The translations under genes were made by a program, and so were the position numbers. From an uncultured Spirochaetota bacterium (lineage in GTDB: Bacteria > Spirochaetota > Brevinematia > Brevinematales > JAOACQ01), in assembly GCA_963835575.1 (NCBI GenBank), contig CAWIGG010000006.1, positions 352,001 through 416,000 of the forward strand: DNA of 64,000 nt. Direction: 5' to 3'. The notes beneath the pieces were generated by a model. It had not been told where the DNA came from. It searched no databases and saw nothing but the letters and a program-made list of their open reading frames with translations. Within the stretch, counting starts at the first letter, position 1. The number at the start of each line of letters is the position of its first letter. Below are positions 10,588 through 59,307 of this stretch, piece by piece.

Positions 10588-10645
10588 CATGAATCCTAAG
10601 TCCCAAAGGTTTAATTTTAAAACCGGAGAAATAAGAACGAATAAT

Positions 10646-10921
10646 CCGCTAATGCACGCGAATAGACGCGAATAGACAGTGGGAATGAAAAACATAAATA
10701 GCACAAATTAACACAAATGAAATTAAAAAGAAATTAGCGTGACTTCGCGTGGCTTCGCGGAAGACAACGAGTAATCCGCTAATGCATGCAAATGAACCTG
10801 AAGATATCCGCGAACGGAAAACTACGAATAACACAAATTAATATGAATAAATTTGGGATTGCGGATAACCATGAAGGTTTTCTAAAACATTAACTTAGTG
10901 TGTCTTCGTTTGGCTTCGCGG
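10646..10921. repeat. Two tandem inverted-arm elements (10646-10760 and 10776-10921) of the CCGCTAATGCACGCGAA family
   Basis: Left arms CCGCTAATGC-ACGCGAATAG-ACGCGAA; right arms TTAGCGTGACTTCGCGTGGCTTCGCGG; both followed by AAGAC. Confidence 0.8.
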
Positions 10922-16320: not shown

Positions 16321-16337
16321 AGAGAAACGGGGGTAAC

Positions 16338-16589
16338 CCGCTAATGCACGCGAAGTACAAAAGTCGTCATTGCGAGGGGACAGATGTCTTTGCGCTGGGA
16401 GATTTAGCACGAAGCAATCTGTAAAATAAAGAGTAGATGAAACACAAAAATAAAGATGGTTATGCGGAGTAATAAGAATAAAGACGAATGAATGATCTGC
16501 AGACAGATTGCTTCGCACGAGAATCATCGGCAAAGAATAAAACTGGATGCTCGCAATGACGACTTTGGGCTGAGTTTGCACTTCGCGTA
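16338..16589. repeat. Periodic-arm element containing a nested GTCATTGCGAG...CTCGCAATGAC palindromic element
   Basis: Left arm CCGCTAATGCACGCGAAG; inner IRs AAAGTCGTCATTGCGAG / CTCGCAATGACGACTTT and CGAAGCAATCT / AGATTGCTTCG; right remnant CACTTCGCGT. Confidence 0.75.
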
Positions 16590-16641
16590 GGACACAGTTG
16601 CATTTTTTAAAGATACAAAATATATATAAAGGAAGAAACAT

Positions 16642-17617: not shown

Positions 17618-18991
17618 ATGAAACAGATATTAACGGCGTTCTTCGTAATACTGCTGGCATTGAATGCCGCCCTGGCCGGAGAAGTCAGAACAATTACCGT
17701 CAGCAATGCCGTGGAGCTGGCACTCATGAATAATCTCCAGCTCAAGCAGTCCGGCGATGATGTCGCGATTGCGAAAGCCCAGCTGGGCCAGAGTTTTGCC
17801 GACTATGCCGTTCCGAAGATCAGCGCCAACGGCAGCCTGACCTTTCTGGACCCCCAGACGGTGAATAACGGAATCCTGGATTCCTTTACAGCGGGCCCGC
17901 CGGCCGGCGGTTTTCCTTTTACGCTCATTCCCGTTCAGTACACGAATGTGTTCGCTGATAATTATTCGGCGGGAATTTCCGTCAATAAGACGCTCTTCAC
18001 AGGGTTCAGGCTCTGGAATTCCATGCGGGTCAAGCAGATCAGCCTGGACCTGGCGAACAGAAAATACGAGGATAAAAAGAAAGAAATCACTTACAATACG
18101 CTTTACTCATTTTACAATCTGTTCCTCCTCAGGGAAAATATAAAGCTTTCGGAGGGACAGGACGCATCGCTGTCAAACCAGGTGAGGAATATCGGGCTGA
18201 ACTATGTCAACGGTTCCGCGTCCGAATATGACAAGATCAGGGTCAACGTGCTGTATAAATACAACCAGCCCAGGCTTCTCACTGCCAGGAACGCTTATCA
18301 GACGGCCAGGATCTCGCTCTGCGATTCCATAGGGATCAAGGATTATGACGATGTTGAATTCATCGGGAATCTCATGGATTATACCAACCTGATCCTGACT
18401 GATTTAACGGAGTCCAATGTTCTGGAGAAAGCGTTCTCCAACGACATAGGTTTGAAAACGATGGACTATTCCATTGAGATCCTGAAGGTAACGAAAGACA
18501 TTAATGACGGGGCGAAATACCCGACGCTCTCCGCGTTCTTCAATTATAAAACAGATTATGAGAAATACAACATGACGAATGCCGGAAGGGACTGGGTGAC
18601 GGGGTGGAACACGGGACTTCAGCTTTCCATTCCGATCGACGACTGGCTCCCTGTTTCCAGAACCGCAAACTCCGTTGAGGAAGTCAACGCCAATATCCGT
18701 AAAAGCTTGAACGCCCGGGAGCAAATGGCCGAAAACCTGTCTCTCCAGGTCAAGTCGCTTCTTATGCAGCTGGAGGTGGCGAAGATCAATGTCGGGAGCC
18801 AGCTGGAAGGGCTGAACCAGGCTCAGCTCGGGCTTGATGTCGCGAATAAGAGATACGGAGCGGGAGCGGCGCTTGCTTCGGAAATCATCGATTCGGAATT
18901 TTCATTCACGCAGGCGCAGATGGGCTATCTCCAGGCGGTTTTTGACTATTACACCAGTATTTTGAAGCTCAAACGCCTGACGGGGGAATAA
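17618..18991 (+). CDS. TolC-family outer membrane efflux protein
   Basis: Signal peptide, AVELALMNN, YPTLS, GLQLSIPI, KRYGAG; duplicated OEP architecture. Confidence 0.88.
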   Translation: MKQILTAFFVILLALNAALAGEVRTITVSNAVELALMNNLQLKQSGDDVAIAKAQLGQSFADYAVPKISANGSLTFLDPQTVNNGILDSFTAGPPAGGFPFTLIPVQYTNVFADNYSAGISVNKTLFTGFRLWNSMRVKQISLDLANRKYEDKKKEITYNTLYSFYNLFLLRENIKLSEGQDASLSNQVRNIGLNYVNGSASEYDKIRVNVLYKYNQPRLLTARNAYQTARISLCDSIGIKDYDDVEFIGNLMDYTNLILTDLTESNVLEKAFSNDIGLKTMDYSIEILKVTKDINDGAKYPTLSAFFNYKTDYEKYNMTNAGRDWVTGWNTGLQLSIPIDDWLPVSRTANSVEEVNANIRKSLNAREQMAENLSLQVKSLLMQLEVAKINVGSQLEGLNQAQLGLDVANKRYGAGAALASEIIDSEFSFTQAQMGYLQAVFDYYTSILKLKRLTGE

Positions 18992-19040
18992 AATACCGGT
19001 TCACCCCGGATAAAACGCATCTTATTTGAAAAGATATAAT

Positions 19041-19331
19041 TCACAGGAAGACGGGAAGGCACGAAGAGATGTGGAATTAGTTAAACTCTTATGATATTGT
19101 TAAAACTTATTACCAAGTATAGAATTGGGTAATATTTTTTAGAAAGGTTTATGAGAATGCAGCGCTTCAGAAAATAAAAAAGTCACAGACTTTAAGACAG
19201 TCCCTTAAAAAACACTGAAGATTCTGTAAAATTTCTGAATTATAATATAGTTTGAACAACATAGAAAATATTTTCATTTCACAATGGCTAAAGCTAAGTG
19301 CGGCTCTTCGTGTCTTCCTTTCTTCCTGTGA
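19041..19331 (+). mobile_element. Inverted periodic-arm element enclosing a decayed GxxExxY-family gene
   Basis: Arms TCACAGGAAGACGGGAAGGCACGAAGAG and CTCTTCGTGTCTTCCTTTCTTCCTGTGA; interior reads SYDIVKTYYQV / ELGN / FLE-VYENA across frameshifts. Confidence 0.6.
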
Positions 19332-19522
19332 AATGAACTTAGAGTAGTATTTATAAAATGAAATTCCAAAAAATATGCAAGGACCGAATGGAACAAAATA
19401 TTTTCACAGGTTTGTCACTGTCAAAAGTTGTGGTCCTGGGGATTTTTTAAATTTTCCGGTTCTTTTGACATATAATCGGGCCTTCATTAAATTATTCTCT
19501 AATTCTGATTAAGAAGGTTTTT

Positions 19523-19801
19523 ATGAGCGTCTTTGAAATTATCATGCTTCTCTGTTTCGGGGCCGCGTGGCCCTTCTCGATTTATAAATCCTACCGCTCC
19601 GGGTCAAATAATGGTAAAAGTATTATTTTTCTTCTGATTGTATTGATTGGATATGCCGCGGGGGTTCTGCATAAGATTTATTATAATTTTAATATGGTCA
19701 TCGTTTTTTACTGCGTCAATCTGGCAATGGTAGCGCTGGACTGCCTGATCTTTATCAGGAACAGCAGGCTCGGCGCGGTCAGAAAAATAAAAACTGATTA
19801 A
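19523..19801 (+). CDS. Small 3-TM membrane protein (PQ-loop/SemiSWEET-like)
   Basis: CFGAAWPFSIYKS..GKSIIFL pattern, 92 aa. Confidence 0.65.
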   Translation: MSVFEIIMLLCFGAAWPFSIYKSYRSGSNNGKSIIFLLIVLIGYAAGVLHKIYYNFNMVIVFYCVNLAMVALDCLIFIRNSRLGAVRKIKTD

Positions 19802-21697: not shown

Positions 21698-22085
21698 GTC
21701 GACCTTAGCCCATGCTATTTCGGTATGGCCTGCTCAAGGTCCGCGATGAACGCTAACAAAGGAAGAAAGTTTATCAAACTGATGAAATCCTGAATGGTAT
21801 TAATCAATCAAGACCATTGCGCAGTAAACTTAAGATAATTCCCTGCAAAAGTCTTCAATCGTCAATAATTACATTTCATTTATTTTCATTCTTCATTAAA
21901 TATTCGACAATCAATAACAGTCATTCCAGTTTTGGAAACATTTCACATCTATTCTTTTCTGCCTATCAGCGGAACAGGCCAGTCTGCGCTGTAGAATCCT
22001 GATGAGTTATTCAGATCTTATAAGCAGCAAAATATTTTTTATTATTTTATCAAAATTCAGTAGTTTGAAACGTATTATTAATAAA

Positions 22086-22288
22086 GGGCAGTTCCAAAAA
22101 CTCAAAATCAATCAGATATTTCCAACATAGGTTTTGGAACTGCCCCGGTTATATAATCTCTTGTAAATTTAATTGGCGCTACCGTATAGAGTTCACTGGT
22201 TGATGATCTTTTCAGACAGAGAACTCGGGCGGTAGCATGAACTCATATAATAGCGGCAGTTCTAAATATTTGAGTTTTTAGAACTGCC
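22086..22288. repeat. Cluster of three long palindromes
   Basis: GGGCAGTTCCAAAA/TTTTGGAACTGCCC (22086-22145), GCTACCG..GAGTTC/GAACTC..CGGTAGC (22178-22236), GGCAGTTCTAAA/TTTAGAACTGCC (22255-22288). Confidence 0.7.
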
Positions 22289-30290: not shown

Positions 30291-30454
30291 AATGGATTCC
30301 TTATACCGGGACCGCTAATGTATCCCTTGATTTTTATTCAATATAAAACAGCGCCGGATAAAAGTCAAAAAGAGCATTATTTGCTTGACATATGGATCCA
30401 TCCGATTTCTGGAGATTGCATAAATTATTTGTTATAATTCTGGAAACTGATAAT

Positions 30455-30767
30455 CCGCTAATTCACGCGAATATACGCGAATTTGGGAAAATATGCGATG
30501 ATTTACAGGAAGACGGAAAGAAGGGAAGAGCTAAAAAATGATTATAATAATAGTTATTACCTATGTAAAAGGATACCGTCATTCCGCTATTTAAGAAACC
30601 TGAAAAAGTATAAAATAAGGAAATGGATTAGGCATATAATAATTATAAAATCCCTAAGGCTTTTGATCAGTAAGGAAATAATAAGCAATAGCCTTATTGT
30701 CCTCCTGTTAATTTAAATATAGCTATAATTCAAGAATTTATTAGTGTGCATTCGCGTGACTTAGCGG
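30455..30767. repeat. Inverted periodic-arm element with an extra internal arm
   Basis: CCGCTAATTCACGCGAATATACGCGAA ... TTAGTGTGCATTCGCGTGACTTAGCGG; internal ACAGGAAGACGGAAAGAAGGGAAGAG at ~30504. Confidence 0.78.
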
Positions 30768-30823
30768 AATACTAATTAGTATGAGTTGATTATTTTATAA
30801 ATTATGATTTGGATTGTAATGTT

Positions 30824-32957: not shown

Positions 32958-34170
32958 TTAAGGCAATATCGTCTTGTTCGTATCAGTCCAGTAACAGGCT
33001 TTATTGCTGGAATCCTGCCCGGCTGTGTAGACGGTGCCGTTATAGACAAAGATTGAGTATGCCTGTCCGCTTATGTCCAGGCTTGTCCTGGTCGTACCTG
33101 TCCAGTAGCAGGCGCCCCAACCGGCGGTATAAACAGTCCCGTTATAGACATAAATTGAATATGCCTGTCCGCTCCAAGCCTGTATGGTCTTGTTCGTGCC
33201 CGTCCAGTAACAGGTTTTATCATTATTATCACACCCGGCGGTATAGACGGTGCCGTTATACACAAAGATCGATCGTGCTTCAGGCAAGAGGGGCCCCCCC
33301 GTTGCTAAAATGGTCTTATTTCGTTCCCGTCCAGTAACAGGCTTCAAATTGGGTGTCCCAACCAATTCCAGCGGTATAGACGGTTCCGTTAGTGACAAAA
33401 ATTGAGTATGCTTCGAGAAGGGTTGCGCCGGGCAGCATGGTCTCGGTTGTACCTGTCCAGAAACAGGCGCTGTAGTAAATGGTATTGTCCTGCCCGGCAG
33501 TATAGACAGTATCATTATAGACAAAAATTGAGTTTGCCTTTCCTCCGCTCGTTAACTGTGTCTTTGCCGTACCCGTCCAGTAGCAGGCGTTAGAATTTGC
33601 GTCCAGCCCGGCAGTATAGACGGTCCCGTTAGTGACAAAAATTGAGTTTGCTGTTCCGCCGTCCGCTAATTGCGTCTTTGCAGTACCAATCCAATAGCAG
33701 GCGTTATTACTGGAGTCCCGCCCCGCGGTATAGATAGTGCCGTTATAGACATAAATTGAGTTTGCCTGGCTGGGATAAAAGCCGGAAAAATTGAAAGGCG
33801 CGTTACTGATAATCCATTGCTTGGGATTATCTATGTAGGTTATATAAATTGTTTGATCTGCCGGGACATTAAAATTATATGACCGCTGACCTGAAAATTG
33901 GAAAAAGTAAATACCGGGGTCGGTATTAAAAGCAGATGAACCGCAAGCCGAAATAGTAGAAGAAGAAATAGTTTTACCTACTGCAGGATCAGGGGAATAA
34001 AAGGAAGAATTGGAATTAGCACATAACGTAAAAGTACCGCTGCAATTAGCGGCTGCTATGATTCGACCGCTTGCGGGTCCGGATTGAGAAGAATCCGGAG
34101 AATTGGAACAAGCCGCTGTCAAAACCCCCAGAGCGATAAAAATACCGTAAAAATAGATATTTCTTTTCAT
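32958..34170 (-). pseudogene. Lipoprotein with ~40-aa tandem repeats (beta-propeller-like), split by a +1 frameshift near 33318
   Basis: Lipobox TAAC; repeated SIFVYNGTVYTAG..ACYWTGT units continue in a second frame (32958-33524). Confidence 0.8.
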
Positions 34171-42511: not shown

Positions 42512-42967
42512 AGAAAATGAGGAGGAAATATGGAACATCAGAATCAGCTTGAGGCAAACCTGAGGAGGTTAAAACTTTCGGGGATGCTATTCAACCTTCC
42601 TATGCGTATCAGGGAAGCGCAGGAATCAAACCTGGACTATGGAGAATTCTTCTACCTGTTAGTTCAGGAGAGATAATAACATGCTCAAAAAGAGGCTGAG
42701 AGAAGCGAAGTTCGGCCAGGAAAACACTTTCGAGGGGTTTGATTTTAATTTCAATGAGAGTGCTATCCCTTCAAGACTAATCCGGGAAATCGCGTCCTGC
42801 CATGAGACAGTTTGTCGTCATCGCCGGGCCTCCCGGCATAGGTAATTATCGAAAGTTTTTGTTTATGGAAAGAAATAGACGAATATATAGATTTTAAGCC
42901 ATATTTACTTTTATTTCTTTCCATAACACCTCACAATAGATTATATAGAATAATCTTGGAGGTGCTT

Positions 42968-44215
42968 ATGAAAACAAAGATTTCCATTGGAGAACTGGTC
43001 GCTAAGGTATTAGCAGAACTTGAAAGGCTGCATTATGCTTATATCACGATTTGTGGTTTTCGTGCCTTTTACAAGCAAGTTATTATTTTTGCAAACGAAA
43101 GGAAAGAACCATATTTTTCAGAAGGACTTGGAAGAGAATTTCTGAAAGGAAAGTACAATTGTTCAATCAACTATTATACTGAAGCTATGCCTAAAAAATT
43201 CAAGAACATTATTCGAAAAATAAGGGTGTTAGGCGATTTCCAGCTTCATGGCGTAGTGATTCGAAGAATTGTAAAGAAACCAGGATATGTAAAACCACCA
43301 CAGTTCGAAAAAGCACTTAGAGACTATGAAAAAGAGTGCGAAGATAACGAATATTCAAGAAGAGGTCTGAGAACACGCACACAACGTCTTTTCTTTTTTA
43401 TCGATTATCTTGATTCTCTTGGAATTCAAAACCTAAATGATATTACAGCAGAAATCATTTCTGATTATGTCAAAACGATTTATGCCCATCATGAAAAGAG
43501 CATGGCCTCAATCCTAACAACACTGAGGGTATTTTTACGATTTCTTTACCTGAACCGGTATACTCAGGAGGACTTATTATTGAAAGTCCCCAAACAAAAG
43601 AAGTACTATTACCCTTCTATACCTTCTGTATGGAAACAGGAAGATGTGGTTCGTATGTTGGAAAATATCGATAGAGGGAATCCAACCGGCAAGAGAGATT
43701 ATGCCATCCTTCTTCTGGCTTCGCGTCTTGGAATTCGAGTAGGTGATATCAAATCCTTAAAATTGAATGAATTAAATTGGAAATCAAAAACCATAGTGAT
43801 TAAACAGAATAAAACAAAAAACATTGTAGCATACCCAATTCTGAAAGACATCGGCTGGGCATTAATTGATTATCTGCGGAATGCACGCCCTGTAAGTGAT
43901 TCGCCATTTGTATTTTTACGCATGAACGCACCTTATGAAGCATTTAGTAAGAATGCCAATCTGTATAATATCATAACAAAGCATACAAGAAACGCAGGAA
44001 TTGCTATACCCAGAGGGAAACGGCATGGTTTGCATTCTCTGCGACATACATTAGCAAGCACTTTGCTTGAACAAGGGACTCCTTTGCCTGTAATATCAGA
44101 AGTTCTAGGGCATATCAACTCTAAGTCCACAGGAGTCTACTTACAGGTAGGAATTGAAGGCTTAAAGCAATGTGCACTTGATCCTGAGGAGGTATTTAAA
44201 GATGTCTCAAGATAA
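42968..44215 (+). CDS. Tyrosine recombinase RitA
   Basis: GKRDYAI..LGIRVGDI, HSLRH, LGH..STGVY. Confidence 0.92.
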   Translation: MKTKISIGELVAKVLAELERLHYAYITICGFRAFYKQVIIFANERKEPYFSEGLGREFLKGKYNCSINYYTEAMPKKFKNIIRKIRVLGDFQLHGVVIRRIVKKPGYVKPPQFEKALRDYEKECEDNEYSRRGLRTRTQRLFFFIDYLDSLGIQNLNDITAEIISDYVKTIYAHHEKSMASILTTLRVFLRFLYLNRYTQEDLLLKVPKQKKYYYPSIPSVWKQEDVVRMLENIDRGNPTGKRDYAILLLASRLGIRVGDIKSLKLNELNWKSKTIVIKQNKTKNIVAYPILKDIGWALIDYLRNARPVSDSPFVFLRMNAPYEAFSKNANLYNIITKHTRNAGIAIPRGKRHGLHSLRHTLASTLLEQGTPLPVISEVLGHINSKSTGVYLQVGIEGLKQCALDPEEVFKDVSR

Positions 44216-45185
44216 AATTATGTTCTCCAGCAATCTCAGAGAGCTTTTAGATGGATATGTAAAAGAGCAGCGCGCAGTTGGTTACAAATACATCAAAGGG
44301 GCTGCCCTTCTTAAGCAGCTTGATAGCTATCTTGAAAGGAATCATCTGGCAGAAAAAAAGCTTTCGAAAGAAATGGTGCTTTCATGGACGGGGAAAAACC
44401 CTAATGAAACAGATAGAACAAGAATTGGGAGGATCTCAATTGCGAGAGGATTTGCAAAATATATGGTTCGTCTCGGCTATGAAGCATATATCTATCCGGC
44501 TGCGGCCGTTACAATGGAAAGATATTATTATGTTCCATATATTTTCTCAGAAAGAGAAATGCGCAGTATCTTTATTGTGAGTGATAATTATCCTGTTTCC
44601 GATATTTCGCCTAATCGTCATCTCGTCTTGCAGCTCATTATACGAATGTTATATGGATGCGGACTTAGAATCTCTGAAGCTTTAAACTTAAAACTGGATG
44701 ATGTGGATCTGGGAAAGGGAATCCTTTATATACGAGATGCTAAGTTTGGAAAGGAAAGAATGGTCCCAATGGCAGAAACATTAATGGAAAGATGCCGCCA
44801 TTATTCATATGAAGTACATAAGTACGATAAAGCTGATACTTATTTTTTCCCTTCTCCATTTGGAGGGCATTACAATGAAGCTACCATATACTGGCTTTTC
44901 AGAAATTTGCTTTGGAAAGCCGGCATTTCCCATAGTGGAAAAGGTCCAAGACTTCATGATTTGAGACATACTTTTTCAGTTCATTGTTTAAAGAAGTGGG
45001 TATTAAAGGGAGCAGATCTTGCTCAACTTCTGCCATATCTCTCAACTTATTTAGGTCATGTTGATTTAAGAGGTACACAACACTATCTAAGACTTACTGC
45101 TGATTTATATCCAACAATCATAGCATCTGTGGAAGAAAACTTTTCATTTTTAATACCGGAGGTTGAATCCCATGAAACAAACTGA
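44202..45185 (+). CDS. Tyrosine recombinase RitB
   Basis: GLRISE, KFGKER, PRLHDLRH, LSTYLGH..TQHY. Confidence 0.92.
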   Translation: MSQDKIMFSSNLRELLDGYVKEQRAVGYKYIKGAALLKQLDSYLERNHLAEKKLSKEMVLSWTGKNPNETDRTRIGRISIARGFAKYMVRLGYEAYIYPAAAVTMERYYYVPYIFSEREMRSIFIVSDNYPVSDISPNRHLVLQLIIRMLYGCGLRISEALNLKLDDVDLGKGILYIRDAKFGKERMVPMAETLMERCRHYSYEVHKYDKADTYFFPSPFGGHYNEATIYWLFRNLLWKAGISHSGKGPRLHDLRHTFSVHCLKKWVLKGADLAQLLPYLSTYLGHVDLRGTQHYLRLTADLYPTIIASVEENFSFLIPEVESHETN

Positions 45186-46194
45186 TTTAGCGAAGACACT
45201 GACCCAATATTTATCACAATATCTCCCTGGGCAGAGAAATGTCAGCACAAATACAATTATGTCATATCGGGATACATTCAAACAGTTACTGATATTCTGT
45301 GATACTGAAATGAATATCAGTCCGGAATACCTGACTCTTAGCAAGATTAAAGCAGAGACAATACAAAACTTCCTGTTTTGGCTTGAAAAATCAAAGAGGA
45401 TCTGCATTAATACACGCAACCAACGTTTGGCGGCTATTCATAGTTTTTATCGGTATGTGCAGACAGAAAATCCTGAATTCATATTTGAATGTCAGAAGAT
45501 TTTAGGTATCCCATTTAAAAAGCGCGAAATCAAAACAATTGATTATCTGCACCAGGATAGCCTAAAGGTTCTATTCGAGCAGCCAGATACAAACACACAA
45601 AAAGGACGGCGTGATTTAACAATGATGGTTCTTCTTTATGACACCGGAGCTCGTGTTCAAGAATTAATCGAATTAAAAGTAGGAGATATCCGCCTTGCGA
45701 AACCAGCTACTATACTATTAACAGGTAAAGGCAGAAAAATGAGAGCTGTTCCCATTATGGGTAAAAGCTGTGACTTATTAAAGAATTATCTGGAAGAGAA
45801 TCATTTATTGGATAACGGGAAACAGAATTATCCTCTATTCTATAATAGTAACAGGCAACCTTTCACACGGCCCGGGATAACTTATATTTTGGAGAAGAAT
45901 CTTAAAAAAGCAAAAGACCTAAACCCCAATATTCTGTTTCCTGATAAATTGAAACCTCATATGATGAGACATACGAAGGCTATTCATTTGTTAGAAGCTG
46001 GAGTTAATCTGATTTATATAAGAGATTTGCTGGGTCATGTAAATGTAAGTACAACAGAACTTTATGCCAGAACAAACTCAGAACTTAAGAGAAAAGCATT
46101 GGAATCTGCTTATATGGAAGTTGTTACGCAAGATGTTCCTGTTTGGGATGAAGATATAGATTTATTGAATTGGTTGCGGGAGTTCTGTAGATAA
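45172..46194 (+). CDS. Tyrosine recombinase RitC
   Basis: TRNQRLAAIHSF, TGARVQE, GKGRK, PHMMRH, LGH..TTELY. Confidence 0.92.
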   Translation: MKQTDLAKTLTQYLSQYLPGQRNVSTNTIMSYRDTFKQLLIFCDTEMNISPEYLTLSKIKAETIQNFLFWLEKSKRICINTRNQRLAAIHSFYRYVQTENPEFIFECQKILGIPFKKREIKTIDYLHQDSLKVLFEQPDTNTQKGRRDLTMMVLLYDTGARVQELIELKVGDIRLAKPATILLTGKGRKMRAVPIMGKSCDLLKNYLEENHLLDNGKQNYPLFYNSNRQPFTRPGITYILEKNLKKAKDLNPNILFPDKLKPHMMRHTKAIHLLEAGVNLIYIRDLLGHVNVSTTELYARTNSELKRKALESAYMEVVTQDVPVWDEDIDLLNWLREFCR

Positions 46195-50972: not shown

Positions 50973-51110
50973 ATATAGAATTAGATATGTTCGGAGAGAG
51001 GGGGTTGCGGATGATGCATAATTCCTTATATACCATAGAATAACAAAACTTCCAAAAAATTTTACTGACACCTGGCTGACAAAATAAAACACTTATTTTT
51101 TATAAAAATC
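50973..51110. repeat. att-like direct repeat copy 2
   Basis: Highly similar to 54674-54810; contains CGGAGAGAGGGGG. Confidence 0.88.
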
Positions 51111-54673: not shown

Positions 54674-54810
54674 ATATAGACTTAGATATGCTCGGAGAGA
54701 GGGGGTTACGGATAATGCGTAATTCCTTATATACCATAGAATAACAAAACTTCCAAAAAATTTTACTGACACCTGGCTGACAAAATAAAAACATCTATTT
54801 TTTAAAAATC
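54674..54810. repeat. att-like direct repeat copy 3
   Basis: Highly similar to 50973-51110. Confidence 0.88.

Positions 54811-57282: not shown

Positions 57283-59307
<2,025 letters not shown>

Follow-up and report, generated by a model that had tools for sequence, protein, structure and literature searches.

The site at positions 19040 to 19332 of the window (the whole 64,000-nucleotide stretch of DNA that was analysed, G000:C6:352001-416000 in a 4.39-Mb draft genome; C2 to C6 below are contigs of the same genome) is likely a dead, mixed copy of a nuclease-plus-repeat system, in which the stub of a GxxExxY gene lies inside arms from another branch of that system. The system as such, a GxxExxY gene enclosed by periodic inverted arms, is real and barely described. 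The left arm of the site (19040..19068, plus strand) consists of three 7-base words of the CAGGAAG type at a period of 8, and the right arm (19304..19332, minus strand) is its inverted counterpart with a decayed middle word; each arm is 29 nt long, the two are 90% complementary, and 235 nt with an overall GC content of 28% lie between them. Immediately inside the left arm is the putative GxxExxY relic (PF13366/TIGR04256; 19069..19188, plus strand), the decayed 5' third of a gene of the FLEKVYENA branch, without catalytic residues. The remaining interior (19189..19303) is AT-rich and has no significant GxxExxY match, and positions 19179-19243 resemble C2:893358-893421 (77%). Two neighbours are given as context only: the upstream host gene for an outer membrane efflux protein (17618..18991, plus strand), whose stop lies 49 nt from the left arm, and a downstream 92 amino acid ORF without a Pfam or NCBIfam match (19523..19801, plus strand). 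PADLOC returned only faint matches. The four other genomes of the genus yielded no orthologue of the slot; hlyD alone gave a good match there, and the genes next to hlyD differ in both of the genus relatives checked.

The relic is very probably the true start of a decayed GxxExxY gene. Peptide pieces are read in the +3 (19087-19119), +2 (19122-19133), +1 (19136-19144), and again the +3 frame (19144-19161), i.e., with three frame changes over the 75-nt core at 19087-19161; the sequence-only reading had put such pieces, joined across frameshifts, in exactly this place. It had also stated that the relic is invisible to the ORF track, and no ORF of at least 100 amino acids is indeed listed there. 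An in-frame ATG is present at 19069, directly 3' of the left arm, and is followed by a stop at 19078. Scoring was done with a purpose-written frameshift-aware profile aligner, using two profiles, one of the FLEKVYENA branch (66 foreign proteins) and a broad one (183 foreign proteins). The former gave 24.3 bits over profile positions 10-42, a score reached by 0/2000 dinucleotide shuffles and 2/2852 AT-matched genome strands, although the P-values are somewhat optimistic because the fitting branch was picked after the resemblance had been noticed. One of the two strands is another relic inside arms, and the other, at 25.3 bits, is an apparently unrelated genome fragment. The broad profile scored 20.9 bits (reached by 3/1000 shuffles) and ranked the site 9th among 89 arm interiors, behind six genes and two clear relics, and a profile mostly of the GPGLLES branch scored 14.3 bits elsewhere in the interior, which 18/150 shuffles also reached.

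It is quite improbable, in our judgement, that the arms are real and the relic a chance match in the AT-rich filler of a plain gene-less pair. What speaks for chance, besides the three frame changes needed in 75 nt, the unrelated fragment that outscores the relic, and the post hoc selection of the profile, is that standard searches miss the relic: a PF13366 profile search of the genome (E ≤ 10) returned ten places, the relic not among them; tblastn with the nine GxxExxY proteins of this genome and nhmmer with their DNA had no significant match there; and genome-wide nhmmer with the 66-gene foreign profile passed over it. The branch of the relic also misfits its arms (see below), and the nine own genes include none of FLEKVYENA type. 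Against chance stand the shuffles and the rank right behind genes and clear relics, and also the agreement of the relic DNA with a Pedobacter gene at 26/28 nt (E 1e-7, 235-nt target). Strand, position, the N-terminal match, and the ATG beside the arm all fit a gene start, as does the distance of the GxxExxY motif from the first word (89 nt, where the 5th percentile of intact loci is 94). With the interior alone as target, nhmmer with the 66-gene foreign profile gave E 5e-4, and blastn with the nine own genes gave one match at the relic (E 2.9e-4). The likeness to a GxxExxY N-terminus proposed by the sequence-only reading is upheld by the frameshift-aware profile, whereas standard HMM searches and tblastn are silent on it. 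The match itself is weak and, with frameshifts allowed, comprises the N-terminal helix and the GxxExxY motif; it spans about one-third of the protein and stops at profile position 42, before the conserved D, E, and K, and lacking these residues the copy is dead.

Stub and arms appear ill-matched. For a test of words against proteins, 96/105 loci with arms found de novo were kept, nine having been dropped beforehand. Base 7 of the word was G in 39/40 loci of the GPGL branch and T or A in 48/51 loci of the GxG[FY] branch, and Tyr at profile column 15 accompanied T in 32/32 loci. When the base-7 labels were placed on the protein tree, 41 changes were required vs. 68.5 after shuffling, a match that is explicable by co-inheritance alone because word and protein share the tree; base 7 changes along a single deep split and can be predicted almost as well from four other columns. 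The stub has the column-15 Tyr and fits best to FLEKVYENA-branch proteins, whose called words end in T, whereas the words of the site arms end in G. The own gene with CAGGAAG arms (L007, C5:453298) is broken at its 3' end and of the GPGL type, and its protein was the worst fit to the stub among the eight own proteins tested. Seven of 130 metagenome loci with CAGGAAG arms hold GxxExxY pieces, which are of the GPGL type in all six that have a visible start. A stub from a T-ending branch within G-ending arms is thus likely not their cognate gene, although an unsampled sub-branch could pair in this way. The copy at the site had been put forward as a candidate autonomous partner of the repeat family, a role for which it is unsuited: neither D nor ExK is present in the stub, and the arm word of its branch is a different one. 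The added value of the site is likely that of a record of exchange between branches.

The gene-arm association is plainest in this genome. Nine PF13366 genes score above the cut-off (six whole, three broken), and 9/9 are enclosed by three-word arms that face inward and fall into five word types; the three genes tested against TIGR04256 all passed its cut-off, at 125-152 bits. They are mostly wedged between host genes, and the right arm of one is interrupted by another hairpin. The earlier proposal that the gene and its periodic inverted arms are one unit agrees with this and with the foreign loci described below; the accompanying check, whether own genes carry the same arms as the site, comes out positive for the three-word design and not for the word, since just one gene (C5:453298) has CAGGAAG arms. 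Perfect three-word arms number 187 on one strand and 189 on the other, whereas reversed or complemented genomes have 5 and 6. If one mismatch is allowed, there are 240 arm pairs vs. nine in control genomes, and gene-less pairs are abundant. Of the 125 best arm pairs, which have a median length of 132 nt, 122 fall between genes, and the word types found most often match those of the own GxxExxY genes. Two gene-less pairs in the window, one at 10642..10765 (CGCTAAT/CGCGAAT words, with a second, decayed pair up to 10926) and one of the CGCTAAT type at 30451..30772 (with a CAGGAAG-type left arm at 30505 inside), had been taken for derivatives of the element at the site; they carry the word type of three other own genes, and this part of the sequence-only reading is not supported.

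Several further loci in the genome are of note in their own right. GxxExxY relics clearer than that of the site occur in CACAGAT arms at C5:37894-38295 (47 bits) and C2:635771-636188 (33.5 bits). Gene-less CAGGAAG pairs with a homologous AT-rich interior (71-76%) are found at C2:50514-50744, C2:1960612-1960839, and C5:224593-224865, and the homologous interiors of these three imply that whole pairs were copied. Four arm pairs enclose unrelated ORFs, which are intact, at C4:357000-357719, C2:1434564-1435473, C3:96930-98089, and C2:480176-481037; by eye, one cargo ORF pair resembles a nucleotidyltransferase-HEPN toxin-antitoxin module. Only 1724/3387 ORFs are on the inferred leading strand, and replichore calls are consequently unreliable.

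Paralogues of the site retain more than its arms. The left outer flank (18998..19044, plus strand) is common to C2:1981877, C2:1584475, and C4:963377, and the right outer flank (19328..19402, plus strand) matches C2:1981781-1981706. The locus C2:1981877-1981706 resembles the site in its outer flanks, over ~45 nt on the left (79%) and 75 nt on the right (76%, E 2e-8), and between the same junction bases there is a hairpin of ~55 nt that belongs to another family (55 copies); the left flank plus a decayed arm is present at two more sites. Such homology beyond the arms means that the copied unit is larger than the arms and that interiors get replaced. Interiors of arm pairs thus seem to be swapped; for the paralogous swap, the other hairpin family is probably responsible, and not GxxExxY. 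Target duplication is a feature of bacterial MITEs. At the arm pairs, direct repeats of at least 6 nt were detected in 13/125 vs. ~7 with shuffled partners, and 59/125 pairs have none of at least 4 nt; no fixed length was seen, and old copies may have lost target duplications.

The family and its arms reach well beyond this genome. PF13366 is a very large family (8000/8000 scored candidates), and GxxExxY genes are present in 14/41 relatives and 83/301 genomes of the phylum. At least ten arms were found in 49/83 genomes with the family vs. 12/218 without a detected gene, kin not being independent in this comparison. The same gene-in-arms design occurs in Bacteroidota, Planctomycetota, Verrucomicrobiota, Chloroflexota, and methanogenic archaea. 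A fixed pattern detected two-sided arms at 31/76 foreign loci vs. 1/71 control windows, and de novo detection found arms at 105/186, with a high control rate (26/186) that is inflated because reversed arrays, used as flank control, remain periodic. Inspected by eye, many of the missed loci have other words, and several divergent GxxExxY genes have no arms. Neighbour genes are varied (housekeeping, CRISPR, restriction), with no fixed partner gene, and 2/150 neighbour ORFs at 76 loci are transposases, the scan having omitted 8/158 neighbour ORFs and 23 near-duplicate loci. In several genomes, GxxExxY cassettes were seen in or beside CRISPR adaptation operons at three loci (L065, L090, and L093; cas4/cas1) and in or beside restriction-modification operons at three others (L013, L099, and L131; type I restriction genes).

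The pyrF-EamA slot of Pedobacter, for which 16/30 loci were parsed and 14 were not, gives a view of one position across close relatives. Four of the 16 orthologues have a full gene (one being the query) and one a 3' remnant; ten have gene-less arms of other words, and one is without clear arms. Contents that differ in this manner indicate that the slot turns over. In a number of less closely related species, the slot is a spacer tens of bases long.

The AlphaFold model of an intact GxxExxY copy (pLDDT 94) had Cas4 SSO0001 as its top fold match (Foldseek E 1.3e-4; VIA Z 8.0, rmsd 3.6, 97 aligned), and restriction enzymes and Holliday junction resolvases were among the others. The modelled fold is restriction-endonuclease-like, where the Z values mean a common fold and not a function. 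Across 183 GxxExxY proteins, the residues D, E, and K show 97-100% conservation.

Gene and arms together had been called a mobile system; their association stands, and binding, cutting, and movement by GxxExxY are what we infer from it. Our tentative preference, held at slightly less than even, is for a selfish nuclease-plus-repeat system in which a GxxExxY protein acting in trans nicks the arms and host repair copies from other pairs. An intact GxxExxY made elsewhere would bind its own words, or the arm hairpin or cruciform, the target being three word sites 8-11 bp apart, or about one helical turn. It would nick at the bound words or at the hairpin, and host repair, which is assumed because a nuclease alone is unable to join DNA, would use another arm pair as the copy source. 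Copying of this kind could replace or delete interiors, nest arms within arms, and capture foreign genes, and now and then it might seed a new pair directly after a host gene; the stub might have come into its non-matching arms by such a swap, or its own inner arms might have been lost. Counting against the nuclease are the 12/218 genomes that are rich in arms without a detected gene. A more far-reaching version, which we think rather doubtful, would make GxxExxY a novel type of mobilising enzyme, namely PD-(D/E)xK nucleases of 120 residues with a first-helix residue-to-base code for the 7-base word, driving cut-and-repair exchange between arm pairs and building swappable gene slots in core operons across bacteria and archaea, with the stub as a fossil of exchange between two branches.

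The arms might instead be RNA hairpins or regulator binding sites, with GxxExxY as a regulator or RNA-processing reader and no active movement, but we consider this unlikely. Read as RNA, the region 19040-19332 pairs stably through its arms (fold z = -7.6, with 0/100 shuffles equally stable), and on the transcribed strand, G-U-compatible mismatches outnumber A-C mismatches (75 vs. 48, p 0.019), a weak sign in the same direction. Pairs are rarer in divergent gaps (17/122 vs. 487/1978 gaps), one asymmetric family follows the upstream gene in 29/40, the gene is co-oriented with the upstream ORF in 69/79 loci, and the same arms were taken for predicted regulator sites in the available text of PMC2700814. 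A promoter scan of the site found five sites where 2.1 +/- 1.6 are expected, and at the Rfam gathering score, the arms in the window and ten loci fell into no family, pieces of group II introns being the only matches. A search for terminators at the site returned nothing terminator-like, which goes against this reading, as do the slot content that changes among close relatives and shrinks to short spacers in distant ones, the absence of a function common to the neighbour genes, and the many decayed copies (3/9 own genes broken, plus relics).

A second way to do without the nuclease is to let a RAYT/IS200-like, IS91-like, or IS110-like transposase move the pairs in trans, with GxxExxY as passenger or helper. 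An IS91 zinc-binding domain does adjoin the gene at L120 and an IS110 that at L066, arm-rich genomes without a GxxExxY gene exist, and REPIN/RAYT is a precedent in the text available for PMC3116915. No transposase match was obtained for 148/150 neighbour ORFs, however, and the present genome has just two weak partial Y1_Tnp matches, yet hundreds of arms of several word types; moreover, the common word types match the own GxxExxY genes, and the word tracks the GxxExxY tree. We hold this second alternative to be unlikely too. Returning to the nuclease-plus-repeat reading, the arms are a concrete candidate substrate for PF13366, with an inbuilt specificity control (cognate vs. swapped word). Should the nuclease spread or swap pairs, the system would be REP-like and driven by a new class of enzyme, and it would offer foreign genes a way into operons.

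Other repeats and elements were noted in passing. A second hairpin family, with CCCTCACC ends and a length of ~58 nt, has 55 sites in the genome (e.g., C2:1981782-1981839, C2:1953581, and C6:335058); these hairpins are often framed by inverted stubs of other hairpins, whose middles they seem to have replaced, and one of their target types is also present unreplaced, near 22080-22150 of the window. The idea that CCCTCACC hairpins are DUF559 repeats was rejected, as both own DUF559 genes carry other repeats. At 16334-16600 of the window, a GTCATTGCGAG-type palindrome lies within a CGCTAAT-type arm or next to it. A small GIY-YIG gene (C4:1026468) has GTCATTGCGAG-type repeats on both sides, and two DUF559 genes have CCCCTCC-type ones, which extends the gene-in-hairpin design to other small nucleases. 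Window positions 36151-63655 form a mobile-element cluster with DUF772 transposases, a Mu-like transposase, a Mutator transposase, an IS481-like element, a group II intron RT (57469-58836), a TOTE primase, and a PIN gene; three tandem tyrosine recombinases with 33-nt inverted ends (42956-46194) lie within it. Minus-strand ORFs made of ~114-nt repeats in two frames, without a Pfam match, occupy 32958-34170, and a 135-nt direct repeat (90%; 50973-51107 and 54674-54808) flanks an AcrB-family gene.

The arms have been printed before. In Geobacter metallireducens, the same arms appear as predicted regulator sites of class 2 (PMC2700814, 2009, Figure S4): like the arms studied here, these are three tandem 8-9-nt repeats in opposite-strand pairs with variable spacing in intergenic DNA. 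Binding by a global regulator was predicted for them, and their consensus, TCTCCGTS[Y], is the reverse of the CACGGAG word, the word at our site being CAGGAAG. The available text of PMC2700814 draws no link from the repeats to a nuclease gene or to mobility, and its Table S4 has 0 matches to "GxxExxY"; the accessible part of PMC2996986 has nothing on a nuclease. PF13366 is listed with the function "Unknown" and multiple transfers in the portion of PMC3424549 at hand, and flanking arms are unmentioned in the available text of papers that name the GxxExxY family. In the literature searched, of which coverage is incomplete, no publication linking GxxExxY to three-word arms was found. With respect to the family (GxxExxY/PDDEXK_3; TIGR04256, PF13366), the intact genes are full members, and the stub, which is without two-thirds of the protein, is likely derived from it.

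The gene-less pairs had also been called MITE-like. They share with bacterial MITEs, as described in the available text of PMC3733652, a non-coding unit of 70-300 bp, terminal inverted repeats of 15-30 bp, and a location near genes. The label is not supported: no fixed target duplication was seen, the pairs have no DDE transposase with matching ends, their interiors are unrelated among most copies, and, unlike in MITEs and ISs with TIRs, homology among paralogues exceeds the repeats, by ~45 nt to the left and 75 nt to the right of the site arms.

By analogy, REPIN/RAYT, together with TIRtrons, is the closest working analogue. The differences lie in the enzyme and the repeat. The enclosed enzyme is a PD-(D/E)xK nuclease (PF13366) and not an HUH/Y1 tyrosine transposase, and no Y1_Tnp was found among the 150 neighbour ORFs; the arm is a direct array of three non-palindromic 7-base words at a period of 8-11 bp, whereas each REPIN/RAYT repeat forms a short palindrome of its own, in many cases with a GTAG or CGTC tag; and the gene lies inside the pair, with interiors that range from <60 nt up to whole foreign genes. 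Differing in both enzyme and repeat, the GxxExxY-arm system is not a member of REPIN/RAYT. What it has in common with REPIN/RAYT and TIRtrons, going by the available text of PMC3116915 and PMC3733652, are abundant intergenic inverted doublets able to form hairpins and a small dedicated enzyme gene with copies of its repeats on either side; further common features are the presence of multiple repeat types in one genome, each belonging to a gene of its own, and a covariation of repeat and enzyme, seen here as clustering on the tree, uncorrected for shared descent.
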